Of a stretch of 64,000 nucleotides of DNA, positions 1-52,086 are shown piece after piece. The position numbers and the translations under genes are program-made. The notes beneath the pieces are model-generated. The model worked only from the letters and a program-made list of their open reading frames with translations. It was not told the origin of the DNA and searched no databases. Position 1 is the first letter of the stretch; the number at the start of each line of letters is the position of its first letter. This stretch comes from Octopus sinensis (Eukaryota): NCBI RefSeq assembly GCF_006345805.1, contig NC_042999.1, positions 4,402,001 through 4,466,000 of the forward strand, in the 5' to 3' direction.

Positions 1-3000
1 ATCAGAATTTAAACTTAGAATGTAAAAAACCAGAACAAATATGCAAGCATCTTTTCTGATGTTCTAACAGTTCTGCCAACTTGCCACTCTTCTTTGTTAG
101 TAAAATAGAAAATTAAAAGCAAATATATATATTATAAGGTCAATAATGATCACCTAAATTATACAGTAAAATACCTATGTTTCTTTTTGGGTCAATCTTC
201 ATCATCATCATTTACCATCCATTTTCCATGCTGGCATGGGTTGGACAGTTTGACAGGAGCTGGCACCAGGCTCCATTGTCTGTTTTGGCATGGTTTCTAC
301 GGCTGGATGCCCTTCATAATGTCAACCACTTGCAGGGTGTACTGGGTGCTTTTTACATGGCACCAGCACTAGTGTCTATTTATGTGGCACCAGTGCTAAT
401 AGGGCCACCAAGTACCTTGCAAGACAAAAATTCTTTAACTGGGAGTGCGGAGTAGTATTGAGGGTGTATCGCTTTGTGCTAGTTGAGAGATTCAAGGTAA
501 AGAGGAGACAGATAACGGTGTCTTGCTATAGAGTAGATACATGGATACTCCAGTTGGAAAAGGAAGGAGAGTGGGTTAGAGAGTAAGATAAAGAGAGCAA
601 TAGTGAGAGTGATGGTAGTGAAGATGTGTCAGGACATGCATTTGAGGAACGTTGGTGAAGTGAGAATAGGTGAGGTGATACAGAGGTTTGGACTGAGTGA
701 GTGAGCAGGATTGAGGTGACTGTCGCAAATGGTGGAGAGAAATGTAGGAGAGGCTTGGGGCGGGGATTGTGGTAGATATATGAGGGTATTGATAAACACT
801 GATATCACTGAATTAGCTCTTTCTATTTATTTATTTTACTTAATTTAACATAGAAATATCTCCCATAAAATTTTAGAATTCCTTTTTGCTATAATACACC
901 ATGAAGTCCCTGATGAAATCTAAGTGCCAAATATTTTATGAAAACTGAACTTAGACGTAAAGTAGGCATTTATGCATCATAACCATTATAAGGTCTTTAT
1001 TATGGACGATAGAATCTTTTATACTTACCATAAAGACTCTCCTATAAACTGCAGATAGAATCACTGCAGTGTTAATGCTCATCATAAGATTTCTACTGTA
1101 ATTTAATATGAGGTGAAGTTCATTAAAAACGTAAATTTACTCTTTCTTTTCTTTTTTTTTTTACCTTCTCACTAATTACTCTCCATTTCCAAAAAGTATA
1201 TAATATTTCCGAGCTATGTTCATGGGAAAATATCTGATTGAGACAGTTTAATGATTTTTATCAGCTATTCAAAAGCAGAGATGTTAAAATCATTTATTAA
1301 CCTGATTATATTGCTTGATGGGAAAAATATTTCAGTCTCAATTTTTTTTGCATTTATTTTTTTTTTACATTTTTTTTTTTGCATCAGTGACTGTTGAAAT
1401 TTTATTTTACTCATCTTCCTAGTTTCAATAATATAAAAATCGAGAGACCATAAAAATTGTCTTATTGTTGAAATGTTTCATCAAACATTAACTATATAGT
1501 GTTTGTTTCATTTTACTATTTATTATAAAACATTAGCTAAACACTTGCTCATATGAAATAAATGATTGATAAACAGTCACTGTTTAAATATATTTAATAA
1601 TTCAGTTGACATAATTTCCAGGGTTTCTTTCTTTCTATTTAGCATTGATTGCATGTTTTAAAAATCAATTTCAGTATGCTAATATATCATTTAGTCTTCT
1701 ATGTTCTTCAGTGTTATTTCATAGTATCTATACTCCACTATGCCATTCAATATTCTGTATTTATCCAGTATTGTCCTAGTTGCAGATATACAAAATCCTA
1801 GGAAACAACATTCCTGTTATGTTAAAAGAAAAACACTCGCACATACATATTAACCACATTTATCGTCATCCACAGCATCGCCAATCTTTTTTTAAAATCA
1901 ATGCTCTAGATCTAATGATAGTGTACCAATTGTGCTCCATCAATATTATCACTAAAAGTATCTTTGATAGCATTTTAAAATGTTGCTCCTGCTCTTATAA
2001 TTTTATATGGAAGCTTAGTCTAAACAAAGAGAACTACCATAATGGTGACTCTGATGATACCCATTGCCTTAACCCCAATTTAATTGTACACACATTTTAG
2101 ATTTGTATATAATTAAATATGAAATAAGTCAGCCATTTCATGTATTTCACTTGGTATGTTAAATAGAGGAGAGAAACCAGTACATCTTTATTTATTGACT
2201 TTTATTTTGTATTCTGGATCAGTTCAAAGTTCTTTAATATTCTTTCGCATCACAACAAATGGGCAATGCCCTTTCACTCCTTCAAGTAGATGTCAACTCT
2301 TTTGATACCAAGATTTGGTTTTATGGTAAAAAAAGAATTACTGTTTTTACAAACTTGCTCAAGAATACAATGCACCACCAAGTCTAGGAATTGAAATCAC
2401 AATCGTTAGACTGCAAGTGCAACACCCTAACCATTAAGCCATGCACCCTCACATATGTGTGTGTGTGTGTGTGGAAGGGTATGTTTATGTTTCCTTGTAA
2501 AACAGTTGTCACTGCCATACATGTGCTGTCACTCATTTTCAATATTCTGTGAGAACAAGTTTGGCTACTGGGAAATATTACTTCAATTTGAAACAGGTGA
2601 AGGTTGGGGACAGGAAAGGCAGCCAACTGTAGAAAATTTGCCTCAAAAAATTTCGTCTGAAACATACAAGTTGATATGATGACAATGATGACAACAATGA
2701 AGATGATATGCTACAGTCTACTTTCAGTTTCCATCTACCAAATCCACTTACAAGGCTTTAGTCGGCCTGGAGCTGTGCTAAAAGACATTTGTCTGATTTG
2801 CTCATAAAAACTCATAAAGACCTGTCATTTCCATAGCTGGATGACTTTCCTAATGCCAACCACTTTACAGAAAGTACTGGGTGCGTTTTCTTGTGATTCC
2901 CAAGACTAGAGTACTGTAGACTGAGGAAGAGATCATAAGAGGGACCAATGACAACAAAAAGGTCAGAAATTGATAGTTGAGTGGGGGAGAGAGGGAGAAA

Positions 3001-3796
3001 GGTGTATAAGTATAGTGGTTATTCAAAGTCGTAGGGCATGTACAGTTGCTTAGGTAACATATGAGGGGCCATAATGGAGGGAAAGAAATAGAAAGAGAGA
3101 GAAATACATCAGGAGGACCAAGATTGGTGAGAGGGTAAAAGAAAGGTGTGTGTGTGTGTGTGTGCGTGCGCATTGTGCTTTTACTTTTTTACATGTTTCA
3201 GTCACTGAGCTTTGTCAATGCTGGGCACCACCTTGAAGGGTTTAAATAAATTAACCCCTTTCCATATTCTTTTTGTCTGTCTGGTACTTATTCTATCAGT
3301 TTCTTTTTTTTCAAACCACTAAGTTTTGGGACATAAACAAACCAACAAACACTGGTTGCCAGGTGGTGAAACTGGACGGCAAATGCAACAACACAAACAT
3401 ATATACATACTTTTGCATGATATGGGTTTAGACAATGATGATGATGATGATGACGACGACGATGACGATGACAACGATGATGGTGATGATGACGACGACG
3501 ATGACAATGATGCTGATAGCTTCATAGTGTTCATTCAGTAAACAATAAAGCCATTTGACAATGTAGGATAAATTGCATTCCTACTTTCAAGATAACAGCA
3601 TGCTTTTTCACTGGAACCTGGCATGCTGATGGGGTTGATGTGTCTGAAAGGGAAATGAGAAAGTTACAGTTTAATACATGCTATGTACCATTACAGTACA
3701 TTGTCGTTTATTTACGGCTCACTAAATTTTGTACACAAATATTCAACATACACTGTATATTAGTAATTTTGGTTCTGTATTTAGTTTAAGTGTGTG

Positions 3797-3916
3797 TATA
3801 CATACATACATACATAAATACATACATACATACATACATACATACATACATACATACATACACAAACACATACATATACATACATACATACATACATACA
3901 TACATACATACATACA

Positions 3917-3945
<29 letters not shown>
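3797..3945. repeat. (TACA)n microsatellite
   Basis: Direct reading; one of dozens of simple repeats, e.g. (GAT/GAC)n 3433-3515, (TAA)n 48934-48996, (TG)n 55633-55713. Confidence 0.95.
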
Positions 3946-3948
<3 letters not shown>

Positions 3949-4644
3949 AAACATCTTATCTAGTCATGATTAGTAATATATATTTAATGAAACTTTCTAG
4001 TTTTTTTCAATTAATTAGATTCTGCATTCAAATCAATAACTTGATTTCTTAAAACCAATATATTGATTTCTAACTTTAAAAAAACAAAAACAATACTAAT
4101 TGCTGTGAGGGAAGAGCTAAAATCAACCTCAGTATATTGTTGGTACATGTATTATGGATTCTAGTGGAATGAATTGCAAATTTGACTTCAATGATTTTTA
4201 AACTCAGAACGAAGCATCAAGGAATTAAATGCAATAATGCATTGAGTCTGGCATTCCAATATCCATCATTTACATCACCCTCGTTAATCAATAAATTGGT
4301 AAATTAATAGCTGATGGTAAGACATGACTGCTTTTGAAATCTGCACTTAATAGTAATTTCTAAAAGAGAAGAAAATAATAGCTATAATGCTAACAACGTC
4401 ATCAACAACAACAATAGTATTAATAATAGTTTCTTTCGTTACAAGGGCGATGGATGAAAACTATCAAATTTTTATAATGGCTTCTTTATTGACTACAGGG
4501 GTCCACCATATAAAATAAATGAAGGTTTCATGTAAATTGTTAGAAACATGATAAGGTGTACACTACAGTAAAAATAGGCAACCCAAAACATAATACGACC
4601 ATATAGTCCAGATAGCAGGACAGTGTACCAGAGAGAATCAAGAC

Positions 4645-4760
4645 ATTGTGGATGAGAAATGGGTATGAATAGTTATTGGTTTATTTTCACTTAGAGATTC
4701 TGAAAAGAAAGATGCTTGGAAGTGCTACTATGAAAAGTTGTTAAATGTGGAGAATGCAAC
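4645..4760 (+). mobile_element. Short RTE LINE fragment
   Basis: Translates to DSEKKDAWKCYYEKLLNVENA, the W..(H/Y)YE.LLN linker motif of RTE ORFs. Confidence 0.5.
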
Positions 4761-5164
4761 TGAAAGACCATTTATTTCGGTGCCATGTAAAAGCGCTGTT
4801 GTTGGACCACAGGTACCATATAAAAAGCAACCTGTACACTTTGTATCAGGTTCCAGTTGTTTATTTTAGCAAGGTTTCTACAGCTGGATTCCCTTCCTAA
4901 TGTCAACCACTTTACACAGTGTACTGGGTACTTTTTATGTGACAATATCACAAGTGCATTTTACATGTGCATTTTACAATATCACAGGTGCATTTCACAA
5001 GTGTACCAACACAGATGCTTTTTACATGGCACCAGCACCAGTGATTTTTTTATGACACTGCTTTTTCCATTTAATTTTTAAAACAAAAAAGACTTTATTA
5101 AACAGGTGTTTGGAACATGCAAAATAAGTGTAGTCTGTGGTGGGTTGGTATCAAAAGAGTTTAA

Positions 5165-5924: not shown

Positions 5925-6331
5925 GGCGCAGGAGTGGCTGTGTGGTAGGTAGCTTGTTTACCAACCACTTGGTTCCGGGTTCAGTCCCACTGCGTGGCAC
6001 CTTGGGCAAGTGTCTTCTACTATAGCCTCAGGCCGACCAAAGCCTTGTGAGTGGATTTGGTAGACGGAAACTGAAAAGAAGCCTGTCGTATATATGTATA
6101 TATATGTGTATGTGTGTGTATATGTTTGTCTGTGTTTATCCTTCTAGCATTGCTTGACAACCGATGCTGGTGTGTTTATGTGCCCGTTACTTAGTGGTTC
6201 GGCAAAAGAGACCGATAGAATAAGTACTGGGCTTACAAAAAGAATAATTCCCGGGGTCGAGTTGCTCGATTAAAGGCGGTACTCCAGCATGGCCACAGTC
6301 AAATGACTGAAACAAGTAAAAGAGTAAAGAG
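5925..6331 (+). mobile_element. tRNA-derived SINE family 1, full length
   Basis: A box TGGCTGTGTGG, B box GGTTCAGTCCC, CCTTGGGCAAGT core, internal (TA/TG)n, AAAAGAGT tail; many copies in the window. Confidence 0.9.
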
Positions 6332-7438
6332 TATACACATTGTTTAGGTACACTGAGGTGATTAAACTTTTAAAGCAATCGTTTATCTTTTTTTATCTTT
6401 TACTTGTTTTAATCATTAGACTGCGGCCAACAAATACTGGTTGTCAGGCAGTGAAGCTGGAAGACAAACACGACAGCACAAACATATGTACATATTTTTG
6501 CATGATATGGGTTTAGACAATGATGATGATGACGACGACGATGATGATGCTCATGGCATCAGAGTGTTCATTTATTAGTCAAATGAATCATTTTCTTTCT
6601 AAGCCTGGTACTTATTCTATCAGACTCTTTTGCCAAACCACTAAGTTACAGGGACAAAAACACACCAGCACCAGCTATCAAGCTGTGCTGAGGAACAAAC
6701 ACACACACATATATGTATGTATGTATATGTATATATATATATGATGGGCTTCTTTCAGTTTCCGTCTACCAAATCCACTCACAAGATTTTGGTCAGCCCA
6801 AGGCTATAGCAGAAGACACTTGCCCAAAGTGCCACACAGTGGGACTGAACTTAGAACAATGCAGTTGGGAGGCAAGCATCTTATGATACCACCACACCTG
6901 TGCCTATTATCAGAGATGATCAAGTATCCATTCTTATAATTATAAACAAGCTATAGATCATTAAAGCATGATCATCAAGAGCAACTTTGCTAAGTGATGC
7001 ATTGATGTATTCCAATCTTATTAATTAATTAACTAATTAATTTCCATATTGCAAGTTTATTTTTCTTAAATATGTTTAAAAGGTAATCTTTCGGAGTTGG
7101 TATACCAAAACTGAAACTATTTGTCGAGCAATTTCTTTAATTTCTCTTTCAGCTGAATCACGTTTATGTATTTTTTGAGTATATATGTGTCTATGTATGT
7201 ATGTATGTATGTTTGTATATGTAAATATATGTATTTATACATACACATGCTATGTGAATACTTCAGCAGTATTACTTTGCTATAGCCATGTCATTTCAAT
7301 TTTTCAGACTGTACCAATATATATCATTAAGATGAACTTAAAATTCTTTCTGTCTCTTTTGTTTGTCTTCATTACGTTAGTTTTATTTCTTCATTTATTT
7401 CAATTCCTGTTAAAGTAGAATATTTTACTCTTTTACAG

Positions 7439-7516
7439 GTGAAGAATTTAGAGACTGCTATGAAAGACGGCCATCAGGGAAGTATATCCATGAATGTAGC
7501 TGTCCATAAAGATTTT
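7439..7516 (+). CDS. CACNA2D: alpha2-delta Ca2+ channel subunit, first recognised internal exon A (VKNLETAMKDGHQGSISMNVAVHKDF), phase 0-0
   Basis: Acceptor ttttactcttttacAG, donor GTAAGT, 78 nt open. Resembles the LRxxMxxxxxGxxxMxV segment preceding the RV..YYY..I.G.PFS motif of alpha2-delta-3/4 and splices in frame to the next exon. Confidence 0.8.
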
Positions 7517-10500
7517 GTAAGTAATAAACATTCTTCTTCTGCCAAGAGTAATAAAATGTCTACAAACAAAAGATAAGCAATAAACCAGAACATTTCTCTT
7601 GAACTGTTGGGCTTTCTCCAGTACAGAAGCATAATTCTTGACAGTAGTGTTTTCCATTTATCACCAAACGGTGTTTTTCAATATGACCTGGCAAATCTAT
7701 GCCAAACAAACAGACGTTAAACCAATATTGGGGAAGAAGACTTCATTAGAATTCCTGAATACACATTTTTTTGTAGATTCTAATTTTGGTAAACTTCTGT
7801 AGTTTGTTGGTCTTATTTTTTTTTTAATCAGTCTTGAGACATTTTTAGGGTTATGAGAAGCTTCCACTTATCTATATAACAAAGTAGACATTAGGTTTAG
7901 GAAAATTGTTTCATAAGAGATTTAGAGTTACAAAGTAAGAAATTTTGATAAATGAGCATGCTACCTGAAAATGGTTCAGGTATATGAGATTCTGAGAATA
8001 CCTGTTTATTACTTACATTGGACTTTGTATCGAGCAGCTCATATTTGTTACCCTGTTAAAGCTTGGCATGACAGCATTTAATCTAGATTGCATGACAAGA
8101 ATTAACGGTTTTGTCATAAAAGGCAATTTTCCATATAGCGACCATGAGAATGGTATTTGTCGCTCATTCTCTATCAGAAATAAATTATTACATTAGCCAA
8201 TTGAAGCGTTTTTCCAGTTGTAAATGACATTTATATGGAAAGAGGCGAGAATAAATTTTAGCTATTCCCTCTGTTTATATTGGACATTTGGATGAAACTG
8301 CAGCTTCTCCCCCCCCCCCCACTCCAATCCATTTTGTGTAATGATTAGAAGCTGTTTCAACTAAAATGTAATATGCTTTTATGATTCACCGTGTAATGCC
8401 TTTTCATCTCAGCTTTCCAAATAATCATATTCATTTATCAACATTTCATCCAACACATCTTTTCATTTAAGCTACTACTAACACTACTGCAACTTTACAC
8501 TATCTAGTACTATATCTATCATTAGTATTATTACTACTATTTCATAATACTATTGTTTTATATTTCTTCATATTTTAAATGTTGGCTGTGTCATGAATAT
8601 TTTGGCCAAACTGCTAAACTCCAATGATCATGTGTATTGGAACCTTCCCCTTTTATTCTTATTTGCTGTTGAGAAATAAACAGTTTACATATAATTTGCC
8701 TCTCAAGATACTCTGCTTTAAAGTAAAAAGTCTAACTATCCTTCACTACCTTTGGAGATGTGGATAGGATTGGTATGACTTCATATTTTTTCCTTAGTGA
8801 ACTATTCACCATCACCACCACCACCATTATCATCATCATCATCATCATCATCTTCATCGTTTTAACTTTCACTTTCGATGCTCACATGGATTGGACAGAA
8901 TCAGTTGATGCAGATTTTCTACACCCAGATACACCCCACCCCTGTCACTAACACTCATCTGTTTCCAAGTGAGGTTGTTTTTCTCCATACCTGAACATGG
9001 TTTCACAGGGGATCGAAAACAAAGGACACCACTTGCATGACAGTAACACTCGTTTACAACAATCATACAATGTCAAGGCAAGAAGACACCAACTCATACA
9101 CACAAAAGCATGGGTTGGATGGTTTGACTGGGCTGGCATGCTGGAAGGCTGCACCAGGATCCAGTATCTGCCATGACTGCGATTACTTCTCTAGCATGAC
9201 ATAATGCTAAAGATCTTGGTCCAATGACCAAGATCTCCATGAGGCCCAACACTCAAAAAGAGCTCAGCCACTTTGCCTCCATGAGGCCCAATGCTTGAAA
9301 GGTACTCAGCCACTTTGCCTCTGTCAGGCCCGATATTCAAAGGTTGATTTTTTTTACATGCCACCAGCACAGGTGCACTTGGATTGGCAGGTCCTCTCAA
9401 GCAGAGCACATCGCCAAATGTGTGTGTGTGTGTGTATTATAAGCTTCTTTCAGAAGGGCATCGAAAGGGCATCAAAAAGGGCATCGACCTGTTAAAACAG
9501 TGACTCAATAACTCATTCATTCGTCTAACTCTTGCCAGCATGGAAAAATGGATGTATAATGAATGAACTACATACTATCAAACCATTCACAACAAACGAA
9601 TGAGAGGACCTCTATGAGGTTTCTCAGCCTGCAAGAAATAGCAGCCAAATTTCTTATCACATTCTACTCTCTTAAAAAGAGAAGAAAATATGAATTCAGA
9701 ATAACGTAGTCTTGGATGCATTATGTCTTAAATGAAAATGGGATGATCACTGCATGAATGTGTTTAATCATAGGTTTGCAAAATCAGAACAGAGCTAACC
9801 TGGGGCTAACTAACAACAACAACAACAACTGTAACACTCAAGCTTACAATGTGGTTTCTTGTTGTTTTTTTTTGGGGGGGGGCGGTATTTCTTGCATAAA
9901 ACAAAAAACATACAATTAACTAGTTCTTGAAATATTTTTTTAAAATGTATTTGGTAGGGGCTCAATGATCTGAGTCAAATGAACATGAAACAATATTAGG
10001 TATGAACTTGCTCTAATTATTAGAGAGATCAGCATGAGATATTTAGCTATAAAAGACATAAAAATTATAAAAGTTTTCATCCAAGAAAAATACTTGAGAA
10101 AATTTTAATAATAACAAAATAAAAAGAAAAAAGAAAATTAACATAATGTCTTGAAGTAATGTTTAGTTTTGTTGAAATATCACATATAAGGAAAAAGAAG
10201 GGTAGGAAGAGATTATATAAGATAGATTTTTCTAAGCTACAGGCAACTGCAAAAGAAAAAAACATGTGAAGTGTATTGAGAGAATGAAAAACAAATGAAA
10301 AATGCAAACCTGGAATGTTAGAAGAACAAAAAAATCTCTATTTTGATCATGCATCTGCTCAATGCAGTCATGTGACTAGCATTTTCTTTTGTTTTATTTT
10401 GTTCCTTTTCCTTTTTTTTTTTTTTAGTCACACTTATAAAGTTTGCTTCTTCACTCCAAGCATAGCCGATAGAAATGTAAAGTAGAATTATGTGATGGTT

Positions 10501-13119: not shown

Positions 13120-13980
13120 CAATTCTCTGTCATCTCCTTCATCAGATACAACATCTTAAGATCGTTTTTCACCACATCATCTCAAGTTTTTTTCAGTCGT
13201 CCTCTTCCCCAAATACCATTCACTTTGAGTACTTGGTACTTGCTTATGTAGATTATCATCATCATCATCATCATTTAGCGTCCGCTTTCCATGCTAGCAT
13301 GGGTTGGACGGTTCAACTGGGGTCTGGGAAGCCAGAAGGCTGCACCAGGCCCAGTCTGATCTGGCAGTGTTTCTACGGCTGGAAGCCCTTCCTAACGCCA
13401 ACCACTCCGTGAGTGTAGTGGGTGCTTTTTACGTGCCACCCACACAGGTGCCAGACGGGGCTGGCAAACGGCCATGGATGGATGGTGCTTTTTATGTGCC
13501 ACCGGCACGGGGGCCAGGCAAGGCTGGCAATGGCCACGATCGGATGGTGCTTTTTACGTGCCACCGGCACGGAGGCCAGTCAGGGCGGCGCTGGCAACGG
13601 ACACGGTCGGGTGGTGCTTTTTACGTGCCACCGGCACGGGGACCAGGTGAGGCTGGCAATGGCCACGATTGGATGGTGCTTTTTAGATGCCATCATTTAT
13701 TCATATCATGTGCTCATACCAACACATATTCCTCTCTTGCATGCTATGTCTGATTCTTCTTATACCCAGTGAGTCTCTCAGTTCATTTATACTGTCTTTC
13801 ATATATCTACCGAAGCATGTTCACCTTATTTCTTTCTAGCCTTTGCATGTCTCCTACACTGAACATCCACATCTTGCACTGTGCAGCAATGCACTTCGTA
13901 CATAAGCATCATATAATCTGTCCTTGATCTTGTAGGATAAGCTGTTTCATGCCAGCAGAGATAATAGCTTCCTGAACTTA
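13120..13980 (-). mobile_element. Decayed RTE-clade LINE fragment, interrupted by a SINE at 13255-13685
   Basis: Minus-strand KFRKLLSLL...YDAYVRSALLHS...DMQRLERNKVNML, and a GRGRxxKTW-like 3' segment. Confidence 0.65.
13255..13685 (-). mobile_element. Repeat family 3 ((GAT)n-tailed retroposon with internal ~62-bp tandem units)
   Basis: GGTTGGCGTTAGGAAGGG..TCCAGCCGTAGAAAC body and (GAT)n tail; 4+ tandem units at 13421-13685. Confidence 0.85.
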
Positions 13981-16317: not shown

Positions 16318-18157
16318 TCCCTCAACACTTGTTCTTCATAATATTCATGCTCTCACCTATCCCCTATCTCTTACTCTTTTATACACCCTTGCAACCTCTT
16401 CCCATCCACTCTTCCCTTTTCTCCTGTCCCCACATGCATCTACTCACTTCATGCCTTGAGGGTCTGCCCAGACACCTCACCTTTACTATTTTATCTCTCT
16501 TCCCAGCTTCACCCTGGTCACTCATAGCCTCTCTTCTAAAATGTGAGTAACCATGTGGATCCTCTACATCAAGAAACCCATTCTGTTCTGGCGTTTTCTC
16601 TCACACTTTAATCAGTCGAGTGGGTTGGTTGATTGGGTGGTTGGTTGGTTGGTTGGTTGGTTGGTTGGTTATGGTCTCAAGTTCAATCCTGCTTTGGAGA
16701 AGTGTCTTCTGCTCTAATCCTCAGGCCAACCAACACCTTGGAAGTGGATTTGGTAGACCAAAAGAAGCCTCTCAGATGTGTTCATGTGTGTGTGTGCACA
16801 CATACATGTGCACCATGTGTGCATGTGCATGTTTCTAGGCATCACGTGATGCTTGAAAAGGAGCATCATCATCATTCAACCAATGTTGTCCATTTCTAAT
16901 CTTTCATGAAAAAGATATCTGACCATGGGGAGGTACTTACATTACTTAGAAACAGGTGAAGGTTGATGACAAGAAAGGCATCCGACCATAGATAGTCTGC
17001 CTCAACAATTTCCATCCAACCCATGCAAGGGTAGAAAAATCGATGTTGAATAAGGGTATGTATACATACATACATATGCATATGTGTATGAATGTATGTA
17101 TATGCATATGTGTATGAATGTATGTATACATATGCATATGTGTATGAATGTATGTATGTATGTCATTATTCAATTTTATTTCAAGATTTCTTGCCAATAG
17201 AAAAAGTGCCAGTTTCTAACCTAGATCCAAGGCTCCTTCAATGGAATTTCAACAACATCAATAGGATATTATTACATGTATTTGTGTATAAGTGCAGTAT
17301 TTGGAATCACTGCATGTGCAGGATTGTATGTTTTGCTTTATGAATGTATTCTCATGAATATAGTTGCATGTCTATATATGTGTATAAATGTATGTCTGAA
17401 GGAATGGTATATACATCAGAATAATCACAAAACCAAATGTTGATAGTTTGAAAGCAGTTCAAAATATTTAGAAATGTTGACTAACATGGGTATTATTATG
17501 TAACAGTTATCTTAAATAACTTCTTGAAATATTTGCAACTAAATACATTCAAAATATCAATATTTAGTTTTGTGATTATTCCAATATGGCACAATTCATA
17601 TTTACAACAATCTGGCCTGTCCTTGCTCAGATAGTACGGTTATAAAGCAACAATATAAGAATGAAAGGTTAAACTGAACACTGGTAAAGGGTATTGAATC
17701 AAAGGATGCTACTGAGTATATGTGTGAGTGTATGTGTGTGTGTGTGTATAAGAGAGACAGATAGACAGACAGATAGGCACCCACATATTATATTTAGCAT
17801 AAATGGAAACCTGAATAATGTCAATTGGCAAAGGTGGAATTTATGTTGCCATTTTGTAAGCTGACCTTTAAAATATAATTTCTTGACCAAAATTCTCTTC
17901 ACTGATTTTAAAAATAAATACATGAGGACATTAATTGAAATCTGGCAGATATTATATAAACCAAAAGAGCAAAATTTGTTTTTGTTACTTACCTGCAATA
18001 AATACCAAGCTAATTTTATTTGTTTATCTTCTGGAAAAGAGACAAGAATTTTGCTTTAATTATTTCGTTTTAGTCTATGCCAAAACTAATCTGTATATAC
18101 TTGCTTTATATTCTAAATGATAAAAATAAGATTAAATATAAATATATTTATTTTTAC

Positions 18158-18220
18158 AGTGACTTCAAAGTTTCAGTTTACTACCTGTAATAGGTAGTAA
18201 GATGAGACTTTGAAGTCACT
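18158..18220. repeat. 29-bp stem hairpin
   Basis: agtgacttcaaagtttcagtttactacct-gtaat-aggtagtaagatgagactttgaagtcact; 2 G.U and 1 mismatch on the + strand. Confidence 0.9.
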
Positions 18221-18395: not shown

Positions 18396-18833
18396 GAATG
18401 GTTTATACCAGGTAGCTTACTGGTAAAGTATGATCACTTTCACAGTGTTCGTTACATATATGGAAATAATTGCCGTGATTAATAGAAATTCTCATATTTT
18501 CCATCTTCTGCCTTTCATTTACCATATACATATTTATATATGTATATAAATATTGATGATGATATATATGAATATTATATATATATATATTAATTTATAT
18601 AAATAAGGATAAGGTTGTTATTTAAAATACTGATCATATCAAGTGGTGAGCATGGGAATAATAATCCTCATAGGTAATAATTATTATTAAAATTATAATT
18701 AAGGGTATCTAAAAGATACCACAATGCTAGATATAGCAGCCAAAACTTGAATCTAAAACCACATTAAAATGTTCATACAGCACCAGGAGAGAAGACAAAG
18801 AGACAAAATAAACTAGAGAAAAATTATTGCATA

Positions 18834-18891
18834 ATTCCAGATCCCAGATTTCTGGCTTTGCATAAGAAATGCTTTGCCTCATCAGTGGAAT
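18834..18891 (-). ncRNA. Type I hammerhead ribozyme motif with one extra A before G12
   Basis: Minus strand: ATTCCA-CTGATGA-GGC aaa GCAT ttctt ATGC aaa GCC-a-GAAA-TC tgg GA-TC-TGGAAT. All three stems pair; AUC cleavage triplet. Confidence 0.65.
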
Positions 18892-19357
18892 ATACACAAA
18901 ATAGTACATAAATACAAATATATATATATACAACATACGTGGCATGTAAAAAGCACTCACTACACTCATGGAGTGGTTGGCGTTACAAAGGGCATCCAGC
19001 TGTAGAAACACTGCCAGATCAGACTGGAGCCTGGTGCAGCCTCCTGGCTTCCCAGACCCTGGCTGAACCGTCCAACCCATGATAGCATGGGGAACGTACG
19101 TTAAACGATGATGATGATGATGATGATGAACACTTACATATATGCACATACACACACATATATATATGCATGTATGCACACGACCAGTTTGAATTTAATA
19201 TTTATATAAATATTATATATATATCATGCAATATTAATAAGAATATTAATAACCAGTTGTTAAAACTCAATATGCTTATGTTTTAGAGTAAAATATCAAG
19301 AGAGAGTGTAATATCAATTAATGAATGACAACAGAACAAAAGCTATGTAATCACTTA

Positions 19358-19447
19358 CATCAGCTTACAGCTGTTTCTGTTATAAGAAGCACTGCACTCA
19401 GCTCTATGTGTATTGCTTCTTATAGCAGAAACATTTGTAAGCTAATG
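19358..19447. repeat. 40-bp stem hairpin with 10-nt loop
   Basis: catcagcttacagctgtttctgttataagaagcactgcac / gtgtattgcttcttatagcagaaacatttgtaagctaatg; 3 G.U and 3 mismatches on the + strand. Confidence 0.85.
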
Positions 19448-19486
19448 AAAAGGATTACATAACTCCTGTTCTGTTTTCATTAATTG

Positions 19487-19519
<33 letters not shown>

Positions 19520-21400: not shown

Positions 21401-23706
21401 AAAACTCAGGAAATTTTCAAATTAAGAAAGTTGTGCTCATATTATTACTAGGGATTCTTTTTGAAAAGAAAAAAAAGGCATGTTTTTCATGTAGCTCAGT
21501 TTAGTATTGACTTCCAGTAAGAGGTTACATGTACTTCAAACATCTCTTCCTGATCTGTTAAAAATGTCAATCGTTTAGTTTTTCTTATGTGATTGATCAG
21601 CTTCGACATTAGCTCAAGACCAGTTAACAGTTATTATCAGAAGTGCCCAGAAAAAGTGTAGCTCCAAAACCATGAAAAAGCCTGCCAGTAGGTATTAAAA
21701 AATTACAAACTTCAAAAGTACACTGAAACATTCCAGAACATTATTTTCCAAACTAGATATAACGTGTTCATAATGTTTTGTACTATTGAAATGTAACACC
21801 TCTTACATTGGCTCTCAGAACAGTATTAGCATTGCTATCATTTACAATTGACAGTAAACAAAAACAAAAATGATAAAGTAATCAACATTAATGAGCTTTA
21901 GGATACATTTTCTCATTACAAGTCTTGTATTTTTTTGGTTACAAAATGTCTTTGATATATTTGACTGTACATATCCCAACCTTCAACTGAATCTAACATC
22001 TTGAAATACTGTTGTCAATACATTGAAGATAACTTGTTCCTTGCTGTTACTGTATTCATACTAAAATATGCTTCCTTTGAGTCAATTAATTTTTAAAATA
22101 ATGAAGAAATTATTAAAATAACTTTATCATTATTGAGCTGATGTTTGGGATGCAAGTATACATAAATTTTGATAATAGGTTTTAATTTAGGTCACTTTAA
22201 AACAAGGAATACATTTATTAGAACCATTTGAGTGTGGCCGTTGCCAGTATCGCTAGAATGGCCCTCGTGCCGGTGGCACGTAAAAGCACCCACTACACTC
22301 TCGGAGTGGTTGGCGTTAGGAACGGCATCCAGCTGTAGAAACTCTGCCATATCAAGATTGGAGCCTGGTGCAGCCATCTGGTTCACCAGTCCTCAGTCAA
22401 ATCATCCAACCCATGCTAGCATGGAAAGCTGACGTTAAATGATGATGATGATGATGATGAAAGGTGGTTTGAGGTGGGTTAGTATTAAGAGGGTTATTAA
22501 TATCTAAGTTCAAAGTTTTTTCATGAACTCAGAATTTTAATCATTTCTCATCTTAATATCTACAGCTCAAATAGACAATAGCTGGCAGAATCATTAGCAT
22601 AATGGACAAAATGCTTAGCAGCATTTCATCTGTCTTTTGTGTTCTTAGTTCAAATCCTGCCAAGGTCAACTTTACCTTTCATCCTTTCAGGCTTGATGAA
22701 ATAAGTACCAGTTGTGCACTGGGGTCAACATAATCAACTAAACCCCTACCCCTCAATTCCAGGCATTATCCCTATTGTAAAAGGGAATATCTACAGCACA
22801 ATTCATACAATTTCATAAATTTCATAAACACTGCTATTTATAACTTTATCTGCTTTGAGACCCACCATTCCAAAAATCATTGCAAGATCAGTTTTCCTCG
22901 TGAAAAAAAAAATCTGTGTATAACACGACATCTCTCAAACGTAGTAATTTGTAGATTCAGAGGAAACCTTGAGAGTATAATGCATTACATATTGTTTAGT
23001 AATGACTGACTCATAATTAATTCATCAGCTGTAAGCTTGATGAATTGATTATGTAATTTGTTTTCTTTTGATTTTTATTCATATGTATGTATAAACTCTC
23101 ACACACATGTTTATATATATGTGGTAAAAAAAAACAAGAATGAACAATTCAAAAATTTTGCTACACATATCATCATAGAGTGGCCATTTATTCAATAATG
23201 CATGATATTACATATTACATTAATTTTACATTACTATATTGCCTACTGAAATGGTGTTGGTATGTAATAAAGTAAATTTATGCAACATCATGTAGCACTA
23301 TGCATTACTGAATAAATGACCGTGCTTTGGAAACACATGTAGCAAAATTTTGACCTGTCCTGTCTTGATTTTTTTTACTCAATTTTACACTGCATAATAT
23401 GTGCAGTATCTTGTTGCTGCGTAAATGGATTTACAGGACACCCAGTATCATTATACAATAGTTTCACATTGCACTGACCACTATATTGAATAGTTGATTG
23501 ATCGGGAGTATTTACATATTCCTCCTGAGTATCATGTTAGCCTTATATATGTTGGGGTGCGACCAAGTAAATTGCTAGGACCATTTAGCTTCACACCACT
23601 CAATGTATATATATACAAATGGATACATAAGTAAATAGATAGATAGATGGATAGATAAATACATTGATAGAGAGATAGATAGACAGACTGCCATTATTGT
23701 TTTCAT

Positions 23707-24233
23707 GTATAATTACCAACACAGGAACATGTATCATATATCAAAATGAAGCTGGTTCTCTGTGGCTCACATCCCTACTTCTCAACATAGTCACCATTTC
23801 TCTCAATAGCAATGTTCCTCCTTCGAATGAGAGCATGTATTCCTGCCCCATAAAATTCTGTTGACCATTCTTTGAGCCACTTCTTTACTACAGTTTTCAC
23901 TTCCTTGTCCCTGGAATAATGTTTGCCTCTCAAACCTTCATTCATGGGGCCCGAAGAGATGATAATCCAGTGACGATGATAGTCCAGTGATGAGGAAGTG
24001 AAAACTGTAGTGAAGAAGTGGCTCAAAGAACAGTCAACAGAATTTTACGGGGTAGGGATACATACGCTCATTCAAAGGTGGAACATTGCTATTGAGAGAA
24101 ACGGTGACTATGTTGAGAAGTGGGATGTGATCCACAGAGGACCAGCTTCATTTTGATGTATGATACATGTTCCTGTGTTGGTAATTATACCTGTCCTAAA
24201 CAAAATGGCATTACTTTTTGACTCACCCTCGTA
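23707..24233. mobile_element. Mariner transposon 3' end duplicated in inverted orientation (MITE-like derivative)
   Basis: Minus ORF gives GPMNEGLRGKHYSRDKEVKTVVKKWLKEWSTEFYGAGIHALIRRRNIAIERNGDYVEK (mariner transposase C-terminus). The same segment recurs on + at 23983-24190 and ends in a mariner-type TIR ...GGCATTACTTTTTGACTCACCCTCG followed by TA. Confidence 0.88.
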
Positions 24234-27246: not shown

Positions 27247-27279
<33 letters not shown>

Positions 27280-27281
<2 letters not shown>

Positions 27282-32441: not shown

Positions 32442-32546
32442 CATAAGTGCATGTGTATGGTTGTGTGTGTATGTGTGTATATATATGTATATTGTAATTA
32501 TTATCATTATCATTGCTATCATTCATTATTTTAAAATATTTTTCAG

Positions 32547-32611
32547 CTTGGCTCTAGTATTCCCTGAAAAATATGGAAATCTTCAGTTAAAAACTAATTT
32601 TGATATAGGAA
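32547..32611 (+). CDS. CACNA2D: alpha2-delta exon C (S-LALVFPEKYGNLQLKTNFDIG), phase 2-1
   Basis: Acceptor atttttcAG, donor GTAAGT. Completes the PFSLALVFP..YG motif typical of alpha2-delta; phases match both neighbours. Confidence 0.9.
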
Positions 32612-33978: not shown

Positions 33979-34138
33979 CATATATACGACAGGCTTCTTT
34001 CAGTTTCCGTCTACCAAATCCACTCACAAGGCATTGGTCGGCCCGAGGCTATAGCAGAAGACACTTGCCCAAGATGCCACGCAGTGGGACTGAACCCGGA
34101 ACCATGTGGTTGGTTAGCAAGCTACTTACCACACAGCC
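33712..34138 (-). mobile_element. SINE family 1
   Basis: Reverse complement of the 5925-6331 type sequence. Confidence 0.9.
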
Positions 34139-37091: not shown

Positions 37092-37259
37092 TATATATAT
37101 ATCCAAATTTACAGGGAAAAAAAATCAGATTTAGGATTAAATCCAATTTTATAGTAAAATATTATAAAATATTATTAGAGACAAAACCACTATTTTGCAA
37201 AACAAACAAGGAAAGACTTAATCAATACATAAAATTTTAATAAATAGTCAAAAAAACCG

Positions 37260-37302
37260 CCACTACAATCGTTTCTTGTCTTGATCGACAATCTTCAGGT
37301 GG
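37260..37302 (-). ncRNA. Minimal type I hammerhead ribozyme motif (left arm of palindrome, mirror copy)
   Basis: Exact reverse complement of 37350-37392. Confidence 0.75.
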
Positions 37303-37349
37303 ACTTCCAATAAGTCAGTTTCAAATTATGAAACTGACTTATTGGAAGT

Positions 37350-37392
37350 CCACCTGAAGATTGTCGATCAAGACAAGAAACGATTGTAGTGG
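37350..37392 (+). ncRNA. Minimal type I hammerhead ribozyme motif (right arm of palindrome)
   Basis: Stem I CCAC/GTGG; core CTGAAGA (37354-60); stem II TTGTC-gatcaa-GACAA; GAAA; short stem III AC-gatt-GT; predicted cleavage GUA^ after 37388. Confidence 0.75.
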
Positions 37393-37534
37393 CGGTTTTT
37401 TTGACTATTTATTAAAATTTTATGTATTGATTAAGTCTTTCCTTGTTTGTTTTGCAAAATAGTGGTTTTGTCTCTAATAATATTTTATATATATATATAT
37501 ATATATATCAATTCGTGTGTTCCTTTCAACCTTC

Positions 37535-41024: not shown

Positions 41025-41067
41025 AGAAGGATGTTCTTCGGAATAAATCATTTCGCTTATCAAGATG
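41025..41067 (+). CDS. CACNA2D: alpha2-delta exon D (K-KDVLRNKSFRLSR-W), phase 1-2
   Basis: Long polypyrimidine tract + cAG, donor ATG|GTAAGC, 43 nt. Supplies the TG of the conserved W(K)YC motif completed by exon E. Confidence 0.8.
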
Positions 41068-42268
41068 GTAAGCAGTTACTGCTTTATTTTGTTTTATTTT
41101 TTTTCTAACTCATTTATTAATTTTTTTTTGTGATTTATTTGTTTAAGCAAAGACTTTTTAAAAGAAAATACATCTACTTTAAATGAAAAAAAAAGTAAAT
41201 AATTATGTTCACTTGGACATACATACATACACACACATACATACATTTACACAAACCGTGTATGTACAGACATACACACACTTACATGTACTGACTCGCC
41301 AATATACACACACATGTACAAACACACAAACACATGCAGTCTCACAAACACATGCATGTACAAAGACACACAGACATATTCACAAGTAATCTTCGTTAAA
41401 TACTTAACACAGAAATATTAATAACTTTTATGCAGTTCAGCTATTTGTGTGTCTCTACATCATACTTGTTTACATATTTATATATTGTATTTATATATGT
41501 ATATGTCGGTGGCACATAAAAAGCACCATCCAAACGTGGCCGTTGCCAGCGCCGCCTTGGCTGGCACGTTAAAAGCTCCAACCGATCGTGGCCGATGTCG
41601 GACCCCCCCCTGGCACCTGTGCAGGTGGCACGTAAAAAGCACCCACTACACTCGCGGAATAGTTGGCGTTAGGAAGGGCATCCAGCCGTAGAAACTCTGC
41701 CAGATCAGACTGGAGCCTGGAGCAGCCCCTGGCTTCCCAGACCCCGGTCGAACCGTCCAACCCGTGCTAGCGCAGAAAACGGACGTTAAACGATGATGAT
41801 GATATATGTGTGTGTACGTGTTTGCACATATATACACATACATGCACACACACACATATATATATTTGTATGTAAGTATGTATCATCATCATCATCCTCA
41901 TCATCGTCATTTAACGTTTGTTGTCCATGCTGGCATTGTTTGGATGATTTGACCAGGGCGAGTAAGCTGGATGGCTGCACCAGACTCCAGTTTGATTTGG
42001 CTGGATGCTCTTCCTGATGCCAACCACTCAGAGCGTAATGGATGCTTTTACATGCCACCAGCATGGGTGCCATTTGTGTGGCATCAGTATTTGCCACGAC
42101 TGATTTTGCTCAGCTTCATGGGTCTTCTTCTCAAACACAACATAATGCCAAAGGTCTCAGTCATTGCCTCCGTGAGGCCCAACACATGAAAGGAACTCAA
42201 CCACTTTGCCTCCCTCAGGCCCAATGCTCATGTGTGTGTGTGTGTGTGTGTTCACATATGTATATATA

Positions 42269-44206: not shown

Positions 44207-44292
44207 GAAATACTGTGAGAACCAGGAAGAAACCAGTATGTCGAGATTATATGAAAGTATTATGAGAGCGAAACGTGCAACACCTGAGAAAT
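44207..44292 (+). CDS. CACNA2D: alpha2-delta exon E (W-KYCENQEETSMSRLYESIMRAKRATPEK-C), phase 2-1
   Basis: Acceptor ttgcttgttgtctcaaAG, donor GTAAGA, WKYC motif. Lies inside ORF 44139-44486. Confidence 0.85.
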
Positions 44293-44439
44293 GTAAGAAT
44301 TCAAATGTCTTCTTTGTGAATTTTAAATTCATTTACAGCCTTTATCTTTTTATATCAACATCATTATCATTGTCGTCGTCATCATTATCATCGTTCGCAT
44401 CATTATCCTCATCATCATCATCATTACCAATATTATTAA

Positions 44440-44589: not shown

Positions 44590-45420
44590 CTATGAGGGGT
44601 ATTCCTTATATAATTCTTCATTTGTGATTATGTTAGAGAGGCTACTATAGGTAATTTTAACAGAATTTCTATTAAAGGTCTTGTGATAATTATAGGAGTG
44701 TTTGAAGTGGGTATCTATAAATTAGAAAATGTGTAGCTATATTTATAGCCACATTCATGCTGTGTGGAGGATTATACCATAATATTTTCCCATGTCATAT
44801 TTTTTTGATTTACCTCCATTTGGTTTAATATAGATTATACTACTCTTAAAATTGAAACTTTCTAATACAATGCTGTAATAGAGGGCTGCATTTTGAAAGT
44901 TGCTTCATCAAAGAATAGTTTGGAAACATGCCTACAAATGCTATTTACTAATTGTTTAATCATTGATTATTGACAGTCAGTGGTTAGAGCCTCTGTCAGT
45001 GTAGCTGTCCTCATTTGGTCTATGGAAGGGTTTTAAATTTTCTTGCAGCTGACAAAATATTTTTGCATAATTTTTTTCTTATCTTATCCATGTCATGGCC
45101 ATTTTCATTATGTAGTACTCATAGACTGTCATCCCTATATAATTCCGTGCTGGCATCTTCTGTTTCGCTATTAAGCATACATAGGATTTAGAGGCCAATC
45201 ATATCCTCAATCTCTACTATACCATGGTTCCCCAGAGTGACATCAAATAGTTCATCTCCATTCTTTCTCATCCAATAGATATTATGGAAAAGCAATGATT
45301 TCCTTGTTTTCATCATAACGTTAGTGATGGTTGTATATGCTTTACTAAACTCAAGTGCCTTTGAGAGGAGATTTTTGGAGACCGAGGGGTAAAAATCCAT
45401 GATGAATTTGCACTGCTATA
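44590..45420 (-). mobile_element. Decayed Penelope-like element reverse transcriptase fragment
   Basis: MDFYPSVSKNLLSKALEF...RKSLLF...W.RK..LFDVTLG...EI.DMIGL, then ELYRDDSL (about 45123-45146): PLE RT motifs with stops and frameshifts. Confidence 0.8.
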
Positions 45421-45791: not shown

Positions 45792-46080
45792 CAAAGCAGC
45801 TTCTTTTACAGAGAGAACTTTACCCCAATTCATCAGTTTGGATCATGTTGCTGCTGTAATAACTTAGCAACAACATAGTTAATTGCCACATGGATGTTAA
45901 TGCATAAGATGGGATGGTAATTCTTACCATCCCACATGCATCAAACATCATGCTTCAATAACTAAGTAGCATTAACATCCATGTGGCAATTAATTATGTT
46001 GTTGCTAAGTTATTACAGCAGCAACATGATCCAAACTGATGAATTGGGGTAAAGTTCTCTCTGTAGAAGAAGCTGTTTTG
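45792..46080. repeat. Inverted repeat, 112-bp arms, 65-nt spacer with internal hairpin
   Basis: 45792-45903 vs reverse complement of 45969-46080 shows three differences; the spacer contains TGGGATGGTAA/TTACCATCCCA. Confidence 0.92.
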
Positions 46081-46096
46081 GCTTATGTGTTATATT

Positions 46097-46491: not shown

Positions 46492-47225
46492 ATATATGTG
46501 CATGTAATATGTATGTGTGTGTGTTTTGTAAAGTGTGGATAAGAATGTGCACCAGGAGGTGAATGAAACATCATATGAAAGTTAATCAAAACAATACTGT
46601 AACACCTACTGCAAGAGGTACCCATCATGGCCACATCTGTGCAAAAGTGTGTAAGTCTTCAAACAGTACTGCAGAGCATTTTAAAGAGAACAATCAAGCA
46701 ATGGCATTACTTTTGATACCAACCTGCCTGAGCCTGTCCCTATATCTGTGATATAAACTTCCTGTTTGAAAGTAATCTAACTCAAAAACCATCCATCAAA
46801 ATTTCATAGTGATTTATGTTCCAAACATAATGACCAAGTTATTCAACTAAATTCTTCATTATTTTCTTCAAAATTCTTCAAAATTAATTGAAACAAAAGT
46901 AACCTATCCTAATGGAAATATTACTCTGTCAAACTTTATATCAATTTTGTTGTTTTTCACAGAAATATATATGCATACTTTCCTTTATAACAAATGTATA
47001 GCCAGTCACATGCATAGTTACTGACTAAAAACATGCCCAAATGCACAAATTCAGAACTTTATATGCATGCAAAAACAAATCATTTACCTGAGTATAACTT
47101 GCACAAGAATATGTAAAAATGCAGTCAGTTGTCATGCACCACTGCACACATATTGATACAGCTCAACTGATATGTTATTAAATACAATTCCAAATTTGAC
47201 TGCAATTGACTGAATCTTCTTGCAG

Positions 47226-47322
47226 GTGACCGAGATTTAGTTAATCTTTTAGCTTTTGATGCTGACATGCTGGTAAAACTCTTCAAAGTATGGAAAGGAA
47301 AGAAGAGGGAAAAAATTAAGAA
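47226..47322 (+). CDS. CACNA2D: alpha2-delta exon F (C-DRDLVNLLAFDADMLVKLFKVWKGKKREKIK-K), phase 1-2
   Basis: Acceptor tcttcttgcAG, donor GTATGT. CDxxLxxxLxFDA...W is a hallmark alpha2-delta motif. Confidence 0.92.
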
Positions 47323-48017
47323 GTATGTACAAAATATCTTGTTCAAATATTTCGTGAATAATTGCAATATTTTGACGTAGAATATTGATTTTTTAATCTT
47401 TCATTGATTCTGTCTTCCATTTTTAATGTTATTATATGCTTTTATTTCAATTCATACTTTGTATTACAATTTTTAAAATTTTAATTTCAATCAATTATTT
47501 CTATTTATAGAGCTATTCATCATCTTTTGATTTTTCTTTTCCTTTTTTCTTTCTTTATAATAAATTTTCTTCTTAGAAGAAAGCGCAAACATTTCAGCTC
47601 TTAGTCACTGAAAATTTTAGGCATTAACCCATTAGGCTATTTGCTATCCAAATCTCTAAATAAACTTAAACCAGTTCCCTTTGGCTAAATCACTTGCCAA
47701 TCAAATTGAACAGGTATCTATCTTTAGACATTTGAAAACTGATTCAAAGGTGTAATATTCTTTAAAATAATTTTATTTTCATTTCTTACCTTAATAGTTT
47801 CTCTTTAAACCATAGGTGTGAGAATAATACGTTTTCAAATGTTACAAATTATCATTCCAACATTTAGATACATTTTGGATTACTTTGAAACATGTCTCCA
47901 GAATCTGAATGAAGTGCTATATTATTTGTTCAATGGACTGTAAGCACCAGACACTTATTGCTTAGTTCCAATGACTTTATATTCTAGGTCACTTAATAGA
48001 ATAGTTATTATCTAAAG

Positions 48018-48931: not shown

Positions 48932-48983
<52 letters not shown>

Positions 48984-50666: not shown

Positions 50667-51279
50667 AACATTTTGTTTCAAAGTAGTCTTCCCGTTAATT
50701 TGTATTCCAAAATTATTTTACTAAATTCTTCATTATTTTCAAAATTAATTGAAACAAATGCAGTGAATTTTATCAACAATATAATAACAAAAGGATTATG
50801 GTAACACAGACACCAGTTTCTTAACGGTGTCTGTGTTTATGACCTATAACAGTGTTACAGCAAATAAACAGTTATCCATCAACTAAAATCTCTTCAAAGA
50901 GATGCCCCAGTAATCCTGCAGTCCAATGACTGGAACAAATCATCATCATCATCGTTTAATGTTCGCTTTCCATGCTGGCATGGGTTGGACAGTTTGACTG
51001 AGAACTGGCAAGCCAGGAGGCTGCACCAGTCTCCAATCTGATCTGGCAAGGTTTCTACAGCTGGATGCCCTTCCTAATGCCAACCACTCTGAGAGTAGCT
51101 TTTTATGTGCCACTGGCATGGGGCATTGTCCACACTTTAATGGTGCTTTTTATGTTCCACTGGCACAGGAGCCAGTCAGGCAACACTGGCATCAAGAATA
51201 AAACAGTTATAATATATGATTTTTCTGTTGTTTTGGCTTTTATATGCTAATGGTATATATGTTTGTTTCCTCTTCCTAG

Positions 51280-51360
51280 GAAAGGGGTAGAAATTATTTT
51301 TGTCGGAACATCTTCTGGATTATTTCTGTATGAACAGTTTGTAGATGAATTGACTGATTT
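51280..51360 (+). CDS. CACNA2D: alpha2-delta exon G (K-KGVEIIFVGTSSGLFLYEQFVDELTD-F), phase 2-2
   Basis: Acceptor tttcctcttcctAG, donor GTAAGT. Matches the recalled GVEVAFLGTRTGL motif of alpha2-delta-3. Confidence 0.92.
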
Positions 51361-51519
51361 GTAAGTATTGATTTCCTTGGCTCAATAATTTAATTTCTTG
51401 GTTCTTTTTTTGTCTCTTTTTACAATTTTTCTATCATATTCATTAAAGTATATGATTTAGACAATTAAGCTATATGGGTAATGATATCAGGTGTGATGTC
51501 TTCATTCTGTGTCTCTCTT

Positions 51520-51582
<63 letters not shown>

Positions 51583-51761
51583 TTCTACTGCTACATTGTC
51601 ACATCAGTTCCAGCATAGTTTTTGTAAACATTCACACACACACACGCTCACATAATAAATACATTATATATGTGACAGACTTCCTTCAGTTTCTTTTAAC
51701 TCAATTAGTTCTCAAGGCAACCACAACAACTGAACCTGAAGCCATACCTATGCCTACATCA

Positions 51762-51801
<40 letters not shown>

Positions 51802-52035
51802 TTCCATCTGACCAATGTAAACATGGAGAAGTGGCTGTTAAATGATGATGATGCCAATAATGATATATACCTATATATATATATATATATATATATTACA
51901 GAGATGTACTTGCATAGCAAGTTACTTGATCTGAGATCATGTGCTGGAATGAAAACAATTGCAGCGTGGAAGGTGTTTATAAGCCATTTAAAAGCTCACA
52001 AAAACCATGAGATTCACTTCGACATTTAAATTTAA

Positions 52036-52086
52036 TTTGCCAAAATATTTTCATTGCTTTGAGACCGCTACCTGTTCACTGACAAA
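52036..52086 (-). ncRNA. Hammerhead-like motif with G3:C8 core (GTGAACA)
   Basis: Minus strand: TTTGTCA-GTGAACA-g-GTAGC ggtctcaaa GCAAT-GAAA-ATATTT-TGGCAAA. 7-bp stem I (one G.U), imperfect stem II, self-complementary AAATATTT stem III. Inside a (TA)n-flanked repeat at about 51895-52100. Confidence 0.5.

Follow-up and report, generated by a model that had tools for sequence, protein, structure and literature searches.

Four inserts with hammerhead motifs and a broken Penelope-like reverse transcriptase within introns of a calcium-channel subunit gene from octopus

Introduction

In the Hydra clade of Penelope-like elements (PLEs), almost all families insert into (TA)n tracts; their hammerhead ribozymes (HHRs) lie about 100–200 nt from the 3′ end, and U is common at the cleavage site (Craig 2021, PMC8557442). 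The clade is marked by RWK and DKT motifs, a CxCX5C linker and, C-terminally, a GIY-YIG domain without CCHH, and one family, Hydra-1_Obim, occurs in Octopus. According to the same paper, PLE insertions typically comprise an inverted 5′-truncated copy and a one-sided tail of 30–40 bp, and are targeted to microsatellites. Here we describe a stretch of 64,000 nt from Octopus sinensis (RefSeq assembly GCF_006345805.1, contig NC_042999.1, positions 4,402,001 to 4,466,000 of the forward strand; the window, whose own numbering is used below). Four inserts with hammerhead motifs, at 18.8, 37.3, 52.0 and 61.4 kb, and a broken PLE reverse transcriptase (RT) lie in introns of one gene for a voltage-gated calcium channel alpha2/delta subunit. 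The inserts, unrelated to one another, are probably independent, truncated 3′ ends of several Hydra-type PLE families, near-neutral for the host.

PLE hammerheads elsewhere are mostly solo and heterogeneous, U3:A8 variants included; opposite-strand pairs lie 100–700 bp apart, and a minimal monomer did not cleave (Cervera and de la Pena 2014, PMC4209133). An anole PLE hammerhead cleaved only with the element protein, a C3G/G8C swap was partly active, and no reads ended at the cleavage site (Frangieh 2024). It is reported second-hand that introns cut by a hammerhead are still spliced and that a fast hepatitis delta virus (HDV) ribozyme blocked splicing. PMC11167929, PMC9068888, PMC2995048 and PMC13282606 were also drawn on. 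Nothing besides Craig 2021 concerned octopus hammerheads among the literature matches listed.

Results and discussion

The alpha2/delta gene spans the window on the + strand, which is therefore the sense strand. Since ten of its exons can be placed at 7.4–61.9 kb (Table 1), every site named here is intronic, in line with an earlier note on this DNA that had taken its motifs to lie in introns of one, supposedly neural, gene. Hammerheads were sought with a type I descriptor run at ten settings, with 100 block-wise dinucleotide shuffles as control; in its strict form it demands a core of CUGANGA, GAAA and UH, at least 4 bp in both stem I and stem II, and uninterrupted junctions. Nine of the ten settings returned only 37354 (+) and 37298 (−), one in each arm of the 37.3-kb insert (shuffle mean 0–0.5). 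Both also pass the strict form, and no other locus in the window is strictly canonical. The loosest setting added 52079 (−) and 61401 (+), making four matches against 1.39 expected, a count that seven of the 100 shuffles reached. A relaxed score, which permits insertions at the junctions, a single mismatch in a stem and covariation of the 3:8 pair, placed the two 37.3-kb copies first (28), followed by 18885 (25), 52079 (22) and 61401 (21), with the next site at 14. When 48 sets of decoy cores were run on the real sequence, 25 was reached by none, 22 by two and 21 by six; these fractions are not clean p-values, because the score was written after the 18.8-, 52.0- and 61.4-kb sites had been seen and the decoy sets overlap. 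The predicted hammerhead folds of the five real matches lie 1.8–3.7 kcal/mol from the ensemble; none of 27 decoy matches (12 distinct sites) was within 4 kcal/mol. Independent support comes from the three solo motifs at 18.8, 52.0 and 61.4 kb, whose cores have a (TA)4+ tract 33, 20 and 35 nt upstream; such a neighbour was found for 3.8% of 5000 random positions.

Under the relaxed rules, with the proviso just given, the hammerhead topology of all three solo motifs is thus above chance, and all three fail the strict descriptor. None of the four motifs is related in sequence to another (0 of 6 pairs significant). The earlier claim of at least three unrelated hammerheads holds in that respect and for the strict 37.3-kb motif, while those at 18.8 and 52.0 kb are flawed although they stand above the decoys. 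The earlier note had placed several motifs in (TA)n tracts or inverted duplications; each of the four inserts lies in (TA)n. Rfam found no hammerhead family in the window; at the gathering score there was no match at all, and at an E-value threshold there was no hammerhead among the matches listed (150 of 199 weak rows), the weak rows being microsatellite matches to microRNA models. A count of half-motifs that ignored the core was not significant (8 matches against 1–6 for nine decoy trinucleotides). A covariance model of the four motifs was abandoned because MAFFT left their cores unaligned, and heptamers that resemble the core were rejected at 52759 and within two dispersed-repeat copies (30019 and 54286).

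The 37.3-kb insert consists of two arms that are identical at 161 of 161 positions, separated by 5 nt, with their 5′ ends pointing inward. The right arm runs directly into (TA)n; the left arm carries about 60 further, tail-like nucleotides before it. This is the published PLE arrangement of an inverted 5′-truncated copy with a one-sided tail. Each hammerhead has a 4-bp stem I, a 5-bp stem II and a short, near-palindromic helix III. The arm starts where the distal helix of stem I is predicted, and the core is 25 nt from the centre of inversion. The predicted structure of a transcript is a 161-bp hairpin of −265.8 kcal/mol, about 79 kcal/mol away from the hammerhead fold, so that the sense hammerhead would be fully sequestered. 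Since the layout matches published PLE insertions (Craig 2021, Cervera 2014), the masking is most simply a product of the insertion itself; it is identical in both orientations. The copy looks recent.

The solo inserts are less regular. At 18.8 kb, where the flanking TA tracts suggest the edges, the motif combines a 6-bp stem I with a 3-bp helix III and a surplus A at the junction of stem II and GAAA. The 52.0-kb motif has a swapped 3:8 pair (G3:C8), a 7-bp stem I, a mismatched stem II, a palindromic helix III and a UU site, and costs 10.7–12.6 kcal/mol when the full structure is enforced. The 61.4-kb motif, which the earlier note did not list, lies about 390 nt 5′ of an exon. Its stem II is long (z −2.3), its stem I bipartite and its site GUA. 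It departs from the strict descriptor in its U3:A8 pair, its junction spacers and a stem I of 3 bp; the structure costs 2.4–2.5 kcal/mol, and the motif is predicted to fold best of the set (ddG 1.8–2.5 kcal/mol). Its 4-bp helix III is identical to that of Hydra-1_Obim. The 12-nt GAAA-helix III stretch at 61449 is unique within the window, and the Craig 2021 supplement (584,131 characters) contains it once, within the Hydra-1_Obim hammerhead; the match was noticed after the fact. A downstream 8-mer common to the 61.4-kb insert and Hydra-2_Amil is given little weight because it occurs five times in the window. A 37-nt tandem duplication (61302–61375) precedes the 61.4-kb motif.

The RT fragment lies on the antisense strand. 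A profile built from 29 of 151 relatives, those of 640–800 aa, matches 44629–45403 (−) with 96 bits (E 3e-29), which confirms the Penelope-like RT fragment that the earlier note had placed at 44.6–45.4 kb; the profile gave no other convincing match in the window (next best E 0.07). The main frame of the relic is 43% identical to one relative, P0004 (E 3e-24). Among the 29 relatives DK[TS] is present in 26, YRDD in 28, CxCx4-6C in 20 and strict RWK in 7, and P0006 has a nuclease region towards its C-terminus together with the CxCX5C linker; these features amount to the published Hydra signature. The relic appears Hydra-like, but this assignment is indirect, because the regions of RWK, DKT, the linker and the C-terminal GIY-YIG domain fall outside it and were seen in its relatives alone. 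No endonuclease, 3′ end or hammerhead is attached to it. P0004, P0006 and P0010 are without a Pfam model. Naiad was rejected as the source of the relic on the domain order of the relatives.

The window resembles the Hydra clade (C-terminal-endonuclease PLEs, PMC8557442) in insertion into (TA)n, in a type I hammerhead near the 3′ end with a short palindromic helix III, in the inverted 5′-truncated copy (as in Penelope-13_HM), in the RT motifs carried by the relic's relatives and, at 61.4 kb, in the GAAA-helix III stretch of Hydra-1_Obim. It differs in that it holds no full open reading frame (ORF) or endonuclease, and in that the Hydra cores tabled there are all canonical, in contrast to G3:C8 at 52.0 kb and U3:A8 at 61.4 kb. 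With the minimal PLE hammerheads of PMC4209133 it shares solo, heterogeneous motifs, a 4–5-bp stem I, a palindromic helix III, the U3:A8 variant and opposite-strand pairs at 100–700 bp. At 37.3 kb, however, U-A replaces the usual G10.1-C11.1, and the available text of that paper has neither Octopus among its taxa nor a mention of a natural G3:C8 core. Naiad PLEs (Naiad_Obim, Naiad_Ovul) likewise occur in Octopus, target (TA)n and leave inverted truncated copies, but they are without canonical hammerheads and their endonuclease is N-terminal, whereas that of the relic's relatives is C-terminal. The hammerheads in amniote introns (RECK, CTCL; PMC6155905) are also type I and retroelement-derived; they are conserved across species, which is not apparent for the motifs here. 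Non-LTR retrozymes (PMC7229834; bioRxiv 10.64898/2026.07.22.740005) are similar in size (about 200–400 nt), non-coding, equipped with a type I hammerhead and proposed to derive from PLEs. They are defined by head-to-tail repeats with one hammerhead per unit and by circular RNAs, and the inserts of the window are solo or head-to-head. Because no hammerhead in the window sits in a tandem repeat of at least two head-to-tail units, the retrozyme half of the earlier note's "PLE/retrozyme-like" population fails. Its PLE half is supported by the (TA)n targets, the Hydra-type hammerhead layout, the inverted truncated copy with its tail and the Hydra-like RT.

Such inserts would arise as follows. The GIY-YIG nuclease of an element would cut TA repeats, and its RT would copy the RNA's 3′ end and stop early, leaving 160–320 nt that include the hammerhead; at 37.3 kb a second, inverted and truncated copy with a tail would have been laid down in the same event. 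The hammerhead there would then be masked through insertion and not through selection. With a short helix III, defects of core or junction and no dimer partner or element protein, the motifs probably cut pre-mRNA poorly, and slow cleavage within an intron need not stop splicing; little strand selection would therefore be expected. The selection to be expected is lowered further by published work, in which a minimal monomer was inactive, the anole hammerhead needed the element protein and, second-hand, hammerhead-cut introns were spliced. The anatomy, strands and flanks of the inserts and the RT homology are read directly from the DNA; the folds are predicted. Several observations weigh against an origin as truncated Hydra-type 3′ ends. 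The tail at 37.3 kb is longer than the published 30–40 bp, and the RT relic is physically unlinked to any of the inserts. Four probes from the 18.8-, 37.3- and 52.0-kb inserts had no match in the Craig 2021 supplement, and a 14-mer at 61447, with one mismatch allowed, arises in 7 of 100 shuffles. On score alone, six of the 48 decoy sets reach the 61.4-kb motif, and the post hoc score and overlapping decoys count here too. Conclusions on family membership, on copy number and on where the inserts truly end draw on single copies.

A further difficulty is that all four inserts start 20–35 nt 5′ of the hammerhead core, which random 5′ truncation does not obviously predict. The uniform start may be a matter of ascertainment or may mark discrete, hammerhead-led units. 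On the second account the solo inserts would be discrete non-autonomous families of 160–320 nt, the size of a pseudo-long terminal repeat (pLTR), led by the hammerhead and mobilised in trans by Hydra-type PLE proteins. The (TA)n spacings of 33, 20 and 35 nt and the 25 nt to the inversion centre fit this account, as do the start of the 37.3-kb arm at the distal helix of stem I and the clean (TA)n boundaries on both sides of the 52.0-kb insert. We think it unlikely, if worth keeping in mind: a hammerhead scan catches only those truncations that just include the ribozyme, short truncations predominate, each insert is present as one copy whose edges cannot be defined, and there are no tandem dimers from which circles could form. 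The wider proposal is rather more doubtful still, that Octopus has several discrete, unrelated non-autonomous Penelope derivatives, each a hammerhead plus a 3′ tail that starts at the hammerhead edge, targets (TA)n and has a covarying core (C3:G8, G3:C8 or U3:A8). If it were true and the copies were many, nature would have set up an in vivo test of RNA cleavage by PLE hammerheads, namely the strand ratio of the copies in very long introns, set against fragments lacking a hammerhead. We also considered that the motifs beyond 37.3 kb could be chance matches in AT-rich DNA, or the 37.3-kb palindrome a fold-back artefact of long-read assembly, or both. The strict failures and the modest excess at the loosest setting would suit chance, as would the unconstrained folds of the 37.3-, 18.8- and 52.0-kb motifs, which are no better than those of shuffles; the complete identity of the arms would suit an artefact. 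This is very improbable given the decoy-core and reversed-sequence controls, the (TA)n adjacency and the Hydra-1_Obim match, and since the palindrome combines unique flanking sequence with (TA)n at either side and a tail that is asymmetric, as in published PLEs. For the sites at 0.9, 43.6 and 46.0 kb chance is the reading we accept (see below). With the preferred origin, as truncated ends of Hydra-type PLEs, the window supplies a few likely additions to the known octopus PLE ends and core variants, missed by Rfam, which is useful for repeat annotation and unsurprising.

The earlier note had gone on to propose a rule: hammerheads cut pre-mRNA in vivo, so that intact intronic copies last only if antisense, degenerate or base-paired. 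In its favour, the one sense copy that is strictly canonical would, by prediction, be masked completely, the sense copy at 61.4 kb has a variant core and junction spacers, a second masked palindrome may exist at 19.4 kb, and the RT relic is antisense. Tandem non-LTR retrozymes are reported to be under-represented in Xenopus introns (strand was not analysed there), and the fast HDV ribozyme that blocked splicing points the same way. The strands give the rule no support. Solo copies number two antisense to one sense (one-sided p=0.5; 0.25 without 61.4 kb), and five of five would have to lie one way for p<0.05. The palindrome holds no strand information because a head-to-head repeat gives each strand one hammerhead whichever its orientation, and it is a known insertion product. 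The statement that no good sense copy exists besides the masked one was not confirmed, since 61401 (+) is sense and unpaired; by the earlier note's own standard, which allowed 3:8 variants, this copy is the equal of the 52.0-kb one, and its predicted fold is the best of the set. The other two copies that it called good, at 18.8 and 52.0 kb, do lie on the antisense strand, but both are themselves defective. Repeat families of the window that lack hammerheads are skewed or mixed as well (13:5, 7:4 and 4:4), so any strand bias needs a hammerhead-less baseline, and conserved hammerheads persist in amniote introns. Moreover, "antisense, degenerate or base-paired" spans nearly every state of an old neutral insertion. 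We therefore regard the rule as improbable. We found no study on the strand bias of intronic PLE hammerheads. As the role of PLE hammerheads is open (Craig 2021, PMC8557442), a genome-wide strand test is worthwhile; the window gives no signal for it.

The 37.3-kb hairpin is plausibly a substrate for RNA editing, though it would account for a small part of the inverted arms in the window. Of the inverted arms that share an intron, the four hammerhead inserts make up 336 of 3259 nt where the arms are within 2 kb, 336 of 4612 nt at any distance and 336 of 1910 nt at ≥85% identity (overall 7–18%); with the 19.4- and 46.0-kb fold-backs added, they reach about 800 of 4612 nt. In squid, the editing of intronic repeats is reported to tend to the ubiquitous and not the neural class.

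Table 1. Positions of the hammerhead inserts, the RT relic, two fold-backs and the host exons in the window
Feature	Position	Strand	Remarks
Head-to-head PLE-type insertion inside (TA)n tract	37103–37489		arms 37163–37323 and 37329–37489
Type I HHR, right arm	37350–37392	+	sense to host; canonical C3:G8 core, GUA site
Identical HHR copy, left arm	37260–37302	−	antisense to host
Type I HHR-like motif, 18.8 kb	18834–18891	−	canonical core; insert ~18605–18920
203-nt insert between two (TA)n tracts	51897–52099	−	HHR-like motif at 52036–52086
HHR-like motif, 61.4 kb	61391–61474	+	sense, unpaired; U3:A8 core at 61401; insert ~61367–61545
Broken PLE RT fragment	44629–45412	−	stops and frameshifts; profile positions 253–539 of 704
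Older fold-back beside (TG)n	19313–19488		69/85 aligned bases match
Young inverted duplication	45792–46080		109/112 match; lone first core box
Host gene segment, voltage-gated calcium channel alpha2/delta subunit	7439–61934	+	ten exons; continues past both window ends
Host exons 1–5 (approximate edges)	7439–7517, 25970–26033, 32542–32611, 41027–41069, 44207–44296	+	
Host exons 6–10 (approximate edges)	47225–47324, 51279–51359, 54968–55122, 55971–56175, 61864–61934	+	

Other features of the window

The weaker hammerhead remnants listed in the earlier note were scored with up to three core changes allowed, against a background of 150 random loci (median −5). Best scores were −9 at 0.9 kb, −12 at 43.6 kb, −4 at 45.8 kb and −6 at 46.0 kb. 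The sites at 0.9, 43.6 and 46.0 kb, being at the random-locus median or below, show no hammerhead topology above chance. The remnant at 19.4 kb scored 9, a value reached by one of the 150 random loci, but decoys yield about four matches of at least 10 per window. Both arms of that fold-back retain the hairpin-GAAA-helix III half, read outward, without the first core box, and it is possibly a decayed, older analogue of the 37.3-kb insert. The 46.0-kb duplication was rejected as a hammerhead: its arms contain no GAAA and no valid stems, and a hammerhead element as young as this would be expected to be nearly intact. It encloses a second, nested hairpin, is not flanked by (TA)n, and may be a local template-switch product.

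Other fold-backs are present. A 522-nt example at 23689–24210 (208 of 233 arm positions match), in which an ORF resembles the C-terminus of a mariner/SETMAR transposase (E 7e-4), is a putative palindromic transposon remnant. Further old fold-backs, with about 70–90% arm identity and no hammerhead match, lie at 6290–6429, 17419–17581, 18158–18220 and 23124–23378.

The host exons were placed by tblastn and exact peptide matching. The O. sinensis voltage-dependent calcium channel subunit alpha-2/delta-3-like protein (P0001) matches one window exon at 100%, and the ten + strand exons cover its residues 436–749 of 1020; P0003 from O. bimaculoides is likewise identical over its overlap with them. 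A PDB sequence search with a host exon gave no match, and Pfam, run on 86 selected ORFs, identified neither the host gene nor the RT. Calcium-channel alpha2/delta subunits act in excitable cells.

The GC content of the window is 35%, and self-similar or tandem repeats mask about 39% of it (24,780 of 64,000 nt). The commonest dispersed repeat (e.g. 33990–34138) has 18 copies and is the family oriented 13:5; it and the two other families, at 7:4 and 4:4, are accompanied by many inverted pairs of 85–97% identity. A 113-aa ORF at 27185–27526 (+) contains two C2H2-like zinc fingers by Pfam and is presumably the end of a LINE ORF. A GC-rich tandem array at 13421–13692, with 4.3 copies of a unit of about 62 nt, follows a dispersed repeat.

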